Assembly (NCBI GenBank): GCA_964344525.1
Contig: CAYFOB010000038.1
Coordinates: 1-15,113 of the forward strand
Source of the DNA: an uncultured Thiomargarita sp.
GTDB lineage: Bacteria; Pseudomonadota; Gammaproteobacteria; Beggiatoales; Beggiatoaceae
Reading direction: 5' to 3'
DNA: 15,113 nt
Part shown: piece after piece, positions 9,553-12,516 of the stretch
Layout of the letters: every line of letters begins with the position of its first letter
How positions within the stretch are numbered: the stretch's first letter is position 1
Made by a program: the position numbers and the translations under genes
The notes under the pieces: generated by a model
Seen by the model: only the letters and a program-made list of their open reading frames with translations
Databases searched by the model: none
Told to the model about the DNA's origin: nothing

Positions 9553-12516
9553 CTACATCGTATTGCGTTCCCTGACAATACGAATACCTTCCCATGCAGA
9601 CAAGTTTCCTTCTTCTCGTGCGATGATAATTCGCAGCCACCAATGAACCTTTAAGATTAATTCTTTCTCTTCAGCGTAACTGGATTTAGAGCGAAGTGGC
9701 ATTTTTTCTCTTCTTTCCAATTCATTATATCCAATCCAAATGGTTTCTGCGATGCGTGCCACATATTTTCGCCAGGCTTGTCGCATTTCTTGTAAACTTG
9801 TGGCAGTGGCGCAGATTAATAAATCGCTGAGTAAGGCAGCGACTCGTTGGATAGTTGGATTGGATTCCGTTTGTTTGGCTTGTGCGAGCTGTTGTGCCTG
9901 TTGTAAATCATCATTTTCAATGGCTTTACAGATATTGCTGTTCGGATCAGCGCGGGCAAGAACACGAGCATGGGCGAGGGCACGGTTGCGAACAAAGTTA
10001 CGGTCAATGGCATAGCGAGCACTATCGACTGCGTTGTTGGCGCGATCAACGGCATAGCGAGGATTGCCATCCTTATCATCAAAGGCATCAAGGGCTTCGC
10101 TAGTGCGATCTAAAGCATCATAAACGAGGGTGTCGTTGTCGAGGATAGCATATTCTACGCTTGCCCTAGCGTTGGTCAGAGCGCGGTTAATCGTGGCTCG
10201 GGCACTGGTTAGGGCGTAGGTGTAACGGTCCGAGTGGGGCGGACCAACTTTGTCAAAGGAATGAAGGGCACGCATGAGATCGTCGAAGCTGCTGCGAACC
10301 AGGGCTGGCGCTAGGTCATGGGCGAAGTCACGAGCAAGGGCGAGAGCAGTAGCGCGGGCGAAAATCTGAGTGCGTACCAGGGCAAGGGCATGACCAATGG
10401 CGCGGTTGATGGCTAAATCTGCATGTTCGAGGTTGCTAGTGATATTCTTTATATCAACAACAACATAGTTTTGTGGAAATAGCAGGCGAGAAAATTTTTT
10501 AATATGTGTATAAGCACGTTGCTCATTATTTTTTGTTAACCAACTCAATTCGTAACTGTCTTCAGTCCGACACAAAGTAGCTAATTCTTTCGTTTCGCTG
10601 GTGGCAGGATGCTCCTTTGCCTCAGCAAGCGATGGTAAGCGATAACGTACGGAACCTCCTTGTCGCCGAGTCAACCAAGCGCAAAAGGCTTCCGCATCAA
10701 GGGCGCGTATTCCGCAAACTGCGGCTTGGGCAGTCCCCTTATGAAAAGTGTATCTTGTCCAATGATCTGGCTGATAATATTGACTTTCTGCGCGGGATTC
10801 ATCCAAAAATAATTGGTATTCTGCGTAGGTGATATAGTTTAGATCAATGTCATAGTCCTCATCAATGCGTTGTAAACTTTTGAGGCGTTGACTTAAGCGC
10901 ACTTCTGCTGCCAATTTGCGACGTTGGGATTCGGAAGATTCAAGATCAGCTGTCAGGCGATTTTGAACTGCCACACGTACTGACATTTCTAAGGCGCGGG
11001 CTTCTTCTAAACAATTGGCTGCCAAAGTTAAGGCAGACACATTGCCATTATCAAGACAGGCTTGTACCACAGGCGTGGCATCTGTTTGTGCAGCATACAG
11101 TAAAAAAGTTTCATACCACCAGCTGTTATTGACGGATTTCTGCCAATTAATTTTAAGCTTGTTGTCCAATATATGGGTAGCCGCAAGATATTCTTGAAAA
11201 GTTAAATGGGCAAAACTCCATTGCATGGATTCGCGTTCCAATAATAAGCCACTACTGGCTTGCACATCACTTAAAAAATTTTGGACTGCCTCACCAGTCA
11301 CCCCCACACGTTCTAAAGGCAGTGCAATAATTTTCATAGCATTTTCTGTGTCAATCGTGCGCGCTTTATGACGCATCATTTGAAAAGCCAGTGGTTGTAA
11401 AACAACACGCTTTTGAGCTGCTGTCAAAGCATTTTGTATTCCTTTTCCGGCTGCCCAATGTCCAAGCAATACCTCACTAATTTCGGCATACAATTCCACC
11501 CGCCGCCCCGGTAATTGTCCCCGATAGCGGTGTACCATCGCAATCATAGTCAGCAATAAGGGATTTACAGTCAATGCGCTCAAAGTGGGGGCTTCTCGCA
11601 AGCGTTGCATTAAATCCCTAGCCCCCTGCTTAGCACGATGCCGTACGCCTTCATCAGTCTTACCCCCAAATGCGGTGATTTCGTTAGCTAAATACCAAGC
11701 ATCAATAAATCGTTGGACTTGCGCGGTATTAAAAGGTTGCACTTCTAAAACCTGAACACCTTCCACCGGAGCGCTAAGATAACCCTGTGGGCGTGCGGTA
11801 ATAATAAAATGACAACGCGAATATTCAATGATTTGTTTTTCTACCCAAGCGGATACGGCTTGCCGCTGTTTTAAATCAGCAACTTCATCCAGTCCATCCA
11901 ATAACACCAAACACTTGCCCTTTTTTAAGCGCTGTTCAAACCACCGCCGCGGTGGTTTTAATTTGGGGTAATTTTCTTGATTAGCAAAATGCTCATAAAT
12001 TAATTCTGCCAAGCCAAGCGGTGCATCTCTCCCAGAGGATTTTTCCACAACAATTTGTTCTATATGATTCCGCAAAAATAATAAAATGGGTACATAAGGA
12101 AGCAAATAATATTGGCGTTGTTTATTTGCCGCAAATATTAAAGCCATATATTGCAACAGCGTTGTTTTACCACATCCGGGCGCACCAATAATCGCTAAAA
12201 GTAACCTTTTGTGCCTGGTGAAACGCCAAAAATCCCAAATAGGGCGATTGCCAGTCACTTGTTTAGCTGAAATGGGATCAAAATTGATTTGTTCTGAATT
12301 ATGGGATGGGGCAATGCGTAGTTCGACAAAAACTTGCTCAATTTCAAGAGTAAATGTGCCTCTGGTACGTAATCCACGTACATTAAAAACACGATGCTCA
12401 TAAATGACGTGTTGGTTGTAGCGACGGCGAAAACGAGAAAGCGAAATGCTCACAGCGGCGCCTAACCATTTAAGAGTTATATTAATTTTGTTTATAACTT
12501 CAACAATTTTTTTCAT
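9553..12516 (-). CDS. NACHT-family STAND NTPase with a partial FGE-sulfatase (SUMF1/formylglycine-generating-enzyme-like) domain and C-terminal Ala/Arg-rich repeats (987 aa)
   Basis: Walker A AIIGAPGCGKTTLL; Walker B CLVLLDGLDEV (NACHT-type hhhhDGhDE). FIITARPQ sensor region; winged-helix and helical region. FGE-like block ITYAEYQLFLDE...QPDHW...AVCGIRALDAEAFCAWL...VRYRLPSLAEAK matches FGE VTNAEY.AFV...PVVGVSW.DA.AYC.WL...YRLPTEAEWE. Then come about 200 aa of A/R/L-rich short repeats (RAIGHALALVRTQIFARATALALARDFAHDLAPALV; PRYAVDRANNAVDSARYAIDRN). No N-terminal effector domain is recognisable. Confidence 0.9.
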   Translation of the reverse strand: MKKIVEVINKINITLKWLGAAVSISLSRFRRRYNQHVIYEHRVFNVRGLRTRGTFTLEIEQVFVELRIAPSHNSEQINFDPISAKQVTGNRPIWDFWRFTRHKRLLLAIIGAPGCGKTTLLQYMALIFAANKQRQYYLLPYVPILLFLRNHIEQIVVEKSSGRDAPLGLAELIYEHFANQENYPKLKPPRRWFEQRLKKGKCLVLLDGLDEVADLKQRQAVSAWVEKQIIEYSRCHFIITARPQGYLSAPVEGVQVLEVQPFNTAQVQRFIDAWYLANEITAFGGKTDEGVRHRAKQGARDLMQRLREAPTLSALTVNPLLLTMIAMVHRYRGQLPGRRVELYAEISEVLLGHWAAGKGIQNALTAAQKRVVLQPLAFQMMRHKARTIDTENAMKIIALPLERVGVTGEAVQNFLSDVQASSGLLLERESMQWSFAHLTFQEYLAATHILDNKLKINWQKSVNNSWWYETFLLYAAQTDATPVVQACLDNGNVSALTLAANCLEEARALEMSVRVAVQNRLTADLESSESQRRKLAAEVRLSQRLKSLQRIDEDYDIDLNYITYAEYQLFLDESRAESQYYQPDHWTRYTFHKGTAQAAVCGIRALDAEAFCAWLTRRQGGSVRYRLPSLAEAKEHPATSETKELATLCRTEDSYELSWLTKNNEQRAYTHIKKFSRLLFPQNYVVVDIKNITSNLEHADLAINRAIGHALALVRTQIFARATALALARDFAHDLAPALVRSSFDDLMRALHSFDKVGPPHSDRYTYALTSARATINRALTNARASVEYAILDNDTLVYDALDRTSEALDAFDDKDGNPRYAVDRANNAVDSARYAIDRNFVRNRALAHARVLARADPNSNICKAIENDDLQQAQQLAQAKQTESNPTIQRVAALLSDLLICATATSLQEMRQAWRKYVARIAETIWIGYNELERREKMPLRSKSSYAEEKELILKVHWWLRIIIAREEGNLSAWEGIRIVRERNTM

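Follow-up and report, generated by a model that had tools for sequence, protein, structure and literature searches.

The 15,113 nt stretch of DNA analysed here, taken from a contig of an uncultured Thiomargarita sp. (CAYFOB010000038.1) and referred to throughout as the window, contains a complete gene for a NACHT-FGS protein, in which a NACHT NTPase is followed by a C-terminal module resembling the FGE-sulfatase (FGS) domain. The gene occupies 9553..12516 (-) and encodes 987 aa from an ATG start, with its stop codon at 9553-9555, as given by the open reading frame (ORF) list and its translation; the ORF is real, uninterrupted and was correctly placed by the first-pass annotation of this DNA. 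It lies between a convergent homologue of the major vault protein (MVP; 6708..9257 (+)) and a co-directional, frameshifted cysG (12629..13995 (-)). The protein has more than 3544 homologues, the full-length relatives being 43-66% identical. With moderate confidence, the gene can be read as encoding an NLR-like receptor of the STAND type, belonging to the bacterial NACHT class and contained in a single polypeptide, in which a NACHT switch is combined with a non-catalytic, hypervariable, lectin-derived sensor module.

The NACHT nucleotide-binding domain (NBD) spans aa 107-274 (11695..12198 (-)) and was detected by the hidden Markov model (HMM) search suggested as a check, matching Pfam PF05729 at 56.8 bits (E = 3.3e-15) against a gathering cut-off of 26.7 bits. 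Both nucleotide-binding motifs can be read directly from the sequence: the Walker A motif or P-loop, GAPGCGKTT, at aa 111-119 (12160..12186 (-)), and the Walker B motif, LLDGLDEV, at aa 205-212 (11881..11904 (-)). They are intact and positioned as the first-pass annotation described, with G111, P113, G114, G116, K117, T118 and T119 of the former, and D207, G208, L209 and E211 of the latter, invariant across an alignment of 37 homologues (alignment A1). The DGLDE at aa 207-211 fits D[GAS]hDE, the form of the Walker B motif by which NACHT is distinguished from the remaining STAND clades (10.1101/2022.07.19.500537). The arm of the NACHT module that follows, consisting of helical domain 1 (HD1), the winged-helix domain (WHD) and helical domain 2 (HD2), was delimited by Foldseek and invariant columns to aa 275-530 (10927..11694 (-)); R242-P243, in the sensor-1 region just upstream of this arm, and the winged-helix H437, in FAHLTFQEY, are both invariant. 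A full-length AlphaFold2 model built on the 37-sequence alignment (mean predicted local distance difference test score (pLDDT) 81.5, predicted template modelling score (pTM) 0.68) was compared with the PDB using Foldseek, which retrieved NLRC4 (4kxf, E = 2.4e-12), NLRP3, NOD2, NLRP1 and NAIP5. The matches to NLRC4, NLRP3 and NOD2, at E values of 1e-12 to 1e-9, extend over approximately 550 columns and span the whole NBD-HD1-WHD-HD2 arrangement. A sequence search of the NACHT half against the PDB gave no match at E <= 0.01. Hence the DGLDE signature, the Pfam score, the invariant motifs and the NLRC4/NLRP3-like fold together establish membership of the NACHT clade at the levels of both sequence and fold.

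Downstream of the switch, aa 540-660 (10537..10899 (-)) form the N-terminal part of a reduced FGE/FGS core with a C-type-lectin-like (CLec) fold, made up of a linker helix, the strand YIT, the helices AEYQLFLDE and DAEAFCAWL, the strand RYRLP and the hairpin LATLC..YELSWL. The HMM search for an FGE-sulfatase domain gave a partial match, PF03781 aligning with aa 553-634 through profile positions 35-119 of 255 only and scoring 22.4 bits in the scan of the whole protein, slightly below the cut-off of 23.3 bits, and 23.7-26.2 bits in scans restricted to its C-terminal part. The match is limited to profile positions ~25-136 in every family member scanned, and neither this protein nor any of the scanned relatives has an equivalent of the C-terminal half of the profile. 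As the match is partial in all of these proteins, the missing half is a trait of the family and not a local truncation of this gene. A profile search of the PDB found ToxD, PorK/GldK and OvoA via the N-terminal motifs, and the C-terminal module of the protein has the fold of the FGS domain core. In the AlphaFold2 models helices at aa ~661-968 take the place of the canonical C-terminal subdomain, so that its RGGSW segment and its long loop region are both lacking; of the canonical FGE end, the GIRIV strand at aa 977-981 alone remains. It is in the C-terminal half of the domain that true FGEs, such as SUMF1, carry their catalytic cysteine pair and metal site. The module is therefore lacking the catalytic half of the profile, and a check for an intact FGE catalytic site found none. 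Judged by its sequence, the C-terminal module is predicted to be a non-catalytic, FGE/FGS-derived sensor and not an enzyme; this agrees with the first-pass annotation, which had made the same proposal and had recognised the loss of the C-terminal half of the FGE profile.

The accompanying suggestion that the FGE domain is truncated is less easily maintained, as the fold is probably split instead, with the core closed by a conserved strand, GIRIVRE, at the extreme C-terminus. The terminal motif LSAWEGIRIVRER, at aa 972-984 (9565..9603 (-)), is predicted to contain the last beta-strand of the lectin-like fold, and the longer pattern ..YWWL.IV.AREEG.L.AWEGIRIVRE is almost invariant across the family: among the 37 homologues R967, L972 and W975 never vary, while E976, R979, V981 and R982 are at least 90% conserved. 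An AlphaFold2 model of the module alone (aa 540-987), built on 53 sequences (pLDDT 85.5, pTM 0.81), confines strands to module residues 10-120 and 437-445, the latter corresponding to WEGIRIVRE at aa 976-984 (pLDDT 88-95). In both AlphaFold2 models this is the sole strand found outside aa 549-660. Relatives without the helical region also point to a split fold. In a 767 aa protein from an Oculatellaceae cyanobacterium (locus L004), the hairpin GLGYWC... is followed by ...ISIRIVRDR within approximately 45 residues. A protein from a member of the Xenococcaceae (L005), 44% identical to the query over aa 25-638, has a mini-domain ending in KGMRVVK at aa ~726, followed by a separate, complete FGE-sulfatase domain (205 bits, profile positions 4-254). 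The canonical FGE domains in L005 and in an Acidobacteria locus (L011) end ...RGGSW...GFRVV, sharing with GIRIV a pattern of glycine, hydrophobic residue, arginine, hydrophobic residue and valine. The helices at aa ~661-968, approximately 300 aa in total, would on the basis of these models represent an insertion into the last loop of the lectin-like core, replacing the usual ligand-binding subdomain. Pfam scans of the tail, and of an artificial construct joining core and tail, matched the N-terminal part only and left the tail unmatched.

This insertion appears to be composed of two parts, approximately 220 aa (680-900) being hypervariable and the last ~65 aa (901-968) moderately conserved. 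The latter (9613..9816 (-)) carry the pattern R.A.R.Y...GY ... YWWL.IV.AR in alignments A1-A3 and are modelled as two helices, aa 908-937 and 948-968, with a pLDDT of 88-95. The hypervariable part (9817..10479 (-)) was delimited by its composition, identity, AlphaFold2 model and GC content. Over aa 651-900 homologues share 17-23% identity with the protein, whereas the NACHT and FGE-like parts reach 54-61% and the final 42 aa 51%. Homologues place P628 and R967 between 253 and 384 aa apart, with many insertions and deletions. Pairs of homologues with NACHT domains 65-80% identical have a mean identity of 21% in the variable region, and in the case of P0077 and P0101 the NACHT domains are 89% identical and the variable regions 25%. 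It is this disparity between regions, together with the contrast between P0077 and P0101, that suggests the region evolves as a sensor would. AlphaFold2 places long helices here with a pLDDT of 65-83, and the region is accordingly modelled as a hypervariable helical bundle, not as a tandem repeat or a solenoid, the latter being the architecture for which structure prediction had been recommended.

Several properties of this region had been described in the first-pass annotation. That it is rich in Ala, Arg, Leu and Asp is borne out by its composition (A 19, D 11, L 10, R 9 and N 7% over aa 680-880), although it is found at aa ~690-860 and not in the last ~200 aa: the last ~125 aa differ in composition from the Ala-rich stretch, and the final ~40 aa are highly conserved. 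Similarly, a DNA-level repeat does exist, the 11-mer GGCATAGCGAG occurring at 10009 and 10051 (0.14 matches expected; 0/200 shuffles reach two), and both copies encode a 14-aa duplication, RYA[VI]DR (RYAVDR...RYAIDR). Short degenerate repeats, as were proposed for the region, cannot otherwise be recognised, as Tandem Repeats Finder detects no array in the gene, a hydrophobic periodicity is weak (period 2 being reached by 64/2000 shuffles and period 3.6 by 57/2000) and a period-4 hydrophobic signal is absent from this protein. The coding DNA is indeed GC-rich, with a GC content of 0.516 for nt 9817-10479 against 0.428 in the part encoding NACHT and 0.423 in the window. Of the 221 codons in this segment, 105 end in G or C, where the amino-acid-specific usage of the rest of the window predicts 80.1 +/- 6.8 (z 3.7); this excess at third codon positions (GC3) implies that the enrichment is not explained by amino acid composition alone, and it may hint at a different history for the segment, such as recombination or gene conversion. 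Three ORFs of 82-91 aa overlap the GC-rich, Ala-rich part in other frames (9740..10015 (+), 9855..10103 (+) and 9816..10091 (-)), and are most likely by-products of composition and not genes.

In many relatives (P0143, P0148, P0163, P0106 and others) the variable region is a strict low-complexity array, unlike ordinary amphipathic helices. P0163 has a hydrophobic residue at every second position, e.g. ...ARDLARALARDFARARDLARDRDLALALAL..., and the cyanobacterial stand-alone proteins P0143 and P0148 have hydrophobic residues at every fourth, in a (xDLx)n pattern (z 24 and 12 respectively). No Pfam family was found for these arrays.

The C-terminal module as a whole, aa 540-987, constitutes one evolutionary unit. 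An exhaustive HMMER search of representative clusters with the module profile gave end-to-end matches in 5056 clusters at E <= 1e-3, and in 960 at E <= 1e-30, with the module always at the extreme C-terminus of its protein. Two main size classes are evident: stand-alone proteins of ~330-500 aa, and proteins of ~900-1100 aa in which the module is fused to NACHT. A word-indexed search also returned full-coverage stand-alone relatives of ~350-450 aa, for instance in Microcystis (annotated as a 'SUMF1/EgtB/PvdO...' protein), Competibacter and Blastocatellia, as well as TIR fusions. The minor fusion classes involve TIR_2, with or without TPR (P0126, P0150 and P0303), AAA_35 with NACHT (P0108 and P0362) and HEAT (P0402). 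The module is, from this distribution, an independent mobile unit.

At the other end of the protein, aa 1-45 (12382..12516 (-)) contain two predicted helices (aa 2-26 and 28-41) and no recognisable domain in the AlphaFold2 model and alignment A1. No N-terminal effector or effector-associated domain was found in Pfam, NCBIfam or PADLOC scans, as the first-pass annotation had likewise concluded from its reading. In alignment A1 aa 1-45 correspond to the juxtamembrane segment of homologues that have one or two transmembrane (TM) helices upstream. Most of the full-length homologues that are 43-50% identical, mainly from Acidobacteria and metagenomes, are extended by ~50-70 aa that contain one or two helices of strong hydrophobicity (KD19 1.9-2.9). 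In the window protein KD19 does not exceed 1.13, and the TM helices are absent both from it and from the Beggiatoaceae clade to which it belongs (P0002-P0012, P0030 and P0035). The start codon lies only 112 nt from cysG, so that there is no missing upstream exon. The lack of an effector or TM segment is, by sequence comparison, specific to the Beggiatoaceae clade, most distant homologues being predicted to have one or two TM helices; the ancestral form was accordingly membrane-anchored or membrane-targeting, and the Beggiatoaceae clade is 'headless' through their loss.

A scan of genome contigs was dominated by the generic P-loop pattern and returned no more than 14 loci. Gene neighbourhoods were compared at ten loci (the window, L001, L002, L003, L004, L005, L006, L017, L020 and L022). 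The genes flanking the NACHT homologues mostly have housekeeping functions, including cobalamin synthesis, PolA, UvrD, queuosine synthesis, Msr and fatty-acid oxidation. Conflict-related neighbours are sporadic: a Type ISP restriction enzyme, an integrase, a CHAT protein and an LRR protein. The Oculatellaceae locus L004 is the sole one of the ten with a candidate partner effector, a TIR_2-TM-helical gene (5630..7087 (+)) directly upstream of the gene for the TM-NACHT-mini-FGS protein (7286..9589 (+)).

The MVP homologue convergent with the NACHT gene is full-length, at 849 aa, and matches the Pfam Vault repeats (6.7e-67) and MVP_shoulder (3.3e-51), along with Vault_2, Vault_3 and Vault_4. Its relatives are 80-87% identical in Beggiatoaceae; those of filamentous cyanobacteria and Anaerolineae are ~70% identical and usually bear the annotation 'colicin uptake protein'. 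In eukaryotes TEP1, a partner of the vault, is itself a NACHT protein. A conserved pairing of MVP with NACHT can nevertheless be rejected, as five loci with NACHT homologues have no MVP and two Beggiatoaceae MVP loci have no NACHT gene, so that the adjacency is coincidental. Bacterial MVPs have already been reported (bioRxiv 10.1101/872010).

An immune, antiphage role is plausible for the receptor by analogy with NLRs, Avs and bNACHT proteins, and immune wiring is further supported by the fusions of the module to TIR_2 and by the TIR gene upstream of its homologue in L004. Several observations weigh against such an interpretation, or against the model of the sensor on which it depends. No neighbour or partner gene is conserved across the ten loci, the search for partner effectors at homologous positions having yielded the single case of L004. 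PADLOC matched mad8 alone, weakly (19.7 bits) and over the P-loop at aa 102-134, with no match to any other model of known defence systems. A profile of the tail alone recovered no FGE from the PDB, and Foldseek found no solved counterpart of the whole module there, the best E value being 0.12. With neither an effector nor a membrane anchor in this protein, the output step is speculative. Finally, the CLec domains associated with STAND proteins are described as experimentally uncharacterised by Dore et al. 2024 (PMC10907252).

A rival view is that the protein is a non-immune regulatory STAND switch, sensing an endogenous macromolecule or metabolite in the housekeeping or developmental control of filamentous and multicellular bacteria. 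The mostly housekeeping contexts, with cysG and MVP here and the genes listed above elsewhere, fit this, as does the failure to match a defence model. Yet a conserved endogenous ligand would not be expected to select for a hypervariable sensor, with unrelated variable regions borne on near-identical NACHT domains, and the fusion of the module to TIR domains and the enrichment of the family in Beggiatoaceae, filamentous cyanobacteria and Blastocatellia, all of them lineages in which conflict systems abound, are also at odds with it; it is considered an unlikely, if credible, explanation. The missing TM helices raise the question of whether the gene is instead a decaying paralogue that has lost both its TM head and its function, all the more so as the frameshift in the adjacent cysG shows that the contig has at least one damaged gene or sequencing error. 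Decay is improbable, given that 987 codons are uninterrupted, that all invariant motifs of the family are kept, and that the headless form is common to the whole clade at 46-66% identity, which implies purifying selection.

The annotation of the relatives P0148 and P0156 as 'SUMF1/EgtB/PvdO family nonheme iron enzyme' would favour an enzyme fusion, in which the NTPase would regulate an active enzyme, either formylglycine-generating or an iron or copper enzyme of the SUMF1/EgtB/PvdO type. These names are automatic transfers from the partial Pfam match, however, and with the profile covered by the same restricted segment here and in all relatives scanned, and helices in place of the subdomain that holds the cysteine pair in true FGEs, this explanation has next to no probability. 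It follows that 'SUMF1/EgtB/PvdO family nonheme iron enzyme', like 'EcfA2', is a misleading annotation for relatives without the catalytic half, and is corrected here. A further possibility is diversification by a diversity-generating retroelement (DGR), in which a reverse transcriptase hypermutates the C-terminal lectin-fold region from a template repeat; NACHT/STAND-FGS proteins are common DGR targets (PMC10907252, PMC8195603 and PMC7159879), and large sulfur bacteria are named in that literature. In the window, however, no direct repeat pairs 9553-12516 with any other part, and no reverse transcriptase is present among the ORFs. The canonical variable-region site, which immediately precedes the C-terminal strand in a complete FGE domain, is absent from this protein, its extreme C-terminus is invariant, and the variation among homologues consists mostly of insertions, deletions and the changes in length described above, which are not the products of a DGR. 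It is thus very improbable that the gene is a DGR target of the kind seen in other STAND-CLec proteins. A separate observation concerns the Acidobacteria metagenome-assembled genome at L011, in which two NACHT genes stand in tandem (672..3806 (+) and 4098..6776 (+)); the first protein has a complete FGE-sulfatase domain (205 bits) and the C-terminus of the second is nearly identical (RGGSW...GFRVVVSAAL). Such a tandem layout is typical of paired DGR targets.

The unrelated inserts on near-identical NACHT domains, the GC3 excess and the period-2 and period-4 arrays could together be accommodated by a distinct germline-encoded antigen-receptor scaffold, a reduced FGS core with a hypervariable insert that diversifies through insertions, deletions and the exchange of cassettes between paralogues, without a DGR. 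This is offered tentatively and must be regarded as doubtful. Were it correct, the (xDLx)n-type arrays of relatives might fold into a repeat architecture without precedent among solved structures.

If the gene does encode an NLR-like receptor, its mechanism can be sketched by analogy. The hypervariable insertion would provide the ligand-binding surface and, in the resting state, would hold the NACHT module closed. Binding of an invader-derived, or a guarded host, macromolecule would then lead to nucleotide exchange and oligomerisation, as in NLRs, Avs and the tested bNACHT proteins. In most relatives the oligomer would cluster one or two N-terminal TM helices at the membrane, and in a few the module is joined directly to a TIR domain. 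For the headless protein the favoured possibility is that it would recruit a partner encoded elsewhere, for instance a paralogue with a membrane anchor, in the manner of sensor/helper NLR pairs. Alternatively, its output may be simple sequestration of the ligand, as Kaur et al. proposed for 'neutralising' FGS effectors (PMC7159879).

Several other genes are present in the window. The cysG gene, encoding sirohaem synthase, is divided between two overlapping ORFs (13636..13995 and 12629..13672), the break falling at a conserved ...VNVVDQP junction and reflecting a frameshift or sequencing error. At the left end, an incomplete gene at 1..~1640 (-) encodes a membrane-anchored protein that runs off the window. 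Its C-terminal part consists of near-identical 87-nt (29-aa) tandem repeats, EKLRLAQKAEELALEKEEEKIILAKQAKD, which are coiled-coil-like and present in at least six copies within nt 1-753. Upstream of MVP, 3941..4732 (+) encodes a coiled-coil protein of 263 aa that has internal repeats of 42 nt and cannot be assigned clearly to a family, and 4917..6611 (+) a 564-aa membrane HAMP/GAF signalling protein in which a 132-nt segment is duplicated.

Comparison with known systems helps to define what distinguishes this protein. Relative to canonical FGE-sulfatase domains (SUMF1/FGE, ToxD 7spq, CarF 5aoh, PorK/GldK and OvoA, and the DGR protein TvpA 2y3c), the protein has no equivalent of profile positions ~120-255, a long helical insertion standing in for the RGGSW segment and the catalytic or metal-binding part, and the Pfam score lies at the gathering threshold. 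With the animal NLRs NLRC4, NLRP3 and NOD2 it shares the NBD-HD1-WHD-HD2 fold, the order of an NTPase followed by a C-terminal sensor and, presumably, autoinhibition followed by oligomerisation. Sequence identity to these proteins is only 13-19%, however, the sensor is a lectin fold with a helical bundle and not a set of leucine-rich repeats, and there is no CARD, PYD or other death-fold effector.

The DGR-diversified STAND-CLec sensors, which Dore et al. 2024 described as DGR targets in multicellular bacteria (PMC10907252), are another point of comparison. They too combine a STAND/NACHT NTPase with a C-terminal FGE-type C-type-lectin fold as the proposed sensor, the sensor is highly variable, and their hosts include sulfur-oxidising gammaproteobacteria and cyanobacteria. 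By contrast, neither a template repeat nor a reverse transcriptase is found in the window, there is no complete CLec domain of the kind that bears their variable region, and diversity appears to arise through insertions, deletions and cassette-like replacement instead of adenine-directed substitution. The nearest likeness is to the NACHT-FGS proteins. STAND/NACHT-FGS architectures were described by Kaur et al. 2021 (PMC8195603, Fig. 2I), in Kibby et al. FGS is one of the two C-terminal classes termed 'antigen receptor-type' among bacterial NACHT proteins, and 'FGS-C' appears in the figure key (10.1101/2022.07.19.500537), and a 2026 survey of prokaryotic STAND proteins lists FGS among the sensor types (PMC13581612). 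Shared features are the central NACHT with its D[GAS]hDE Walker B motif, the C-terminal FGE/FGS lectin fold with a predicted non-catalytic binding role and all other domains N-terminal to it, and a frequent occurrence in multicellular or filamentous bacteria. The differences are that FGS is here reduced to its N-terminal third and terminal strand, that the ligand-binding half has been exchanged for the helical insertion, and that an N-terminal effector or effector-associated domain is lacking; none of the experimentally tested bNACHT proteins has the present architecture.

Hence the STAND/NACHT-FGS type is already known, and what is new is a large subfamily delimited by three properties: an FGS scaffold with an inserted hypervariable helical region, its existence as an independent mobile module, and the loss of the TM head in the Beggiatoaceae clade. 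For the window itself the consequence is modest, amounting to one more NLR-like gene in a large sulfur bacterium. With the boundaries of the module now defined, its TM-bearing and TIR-fused relatives are better candidates for functional tests than the effector-less window protein. NACHT-FGS proteins have been proposed as bacterial counterparts of antigen receptors, and this subfamily would represent a second design for a sensor of that sort: the conserved half of the lectin fold serves as the scaffold, and a helical insert that evolves rapidly takes the place of the binding half.

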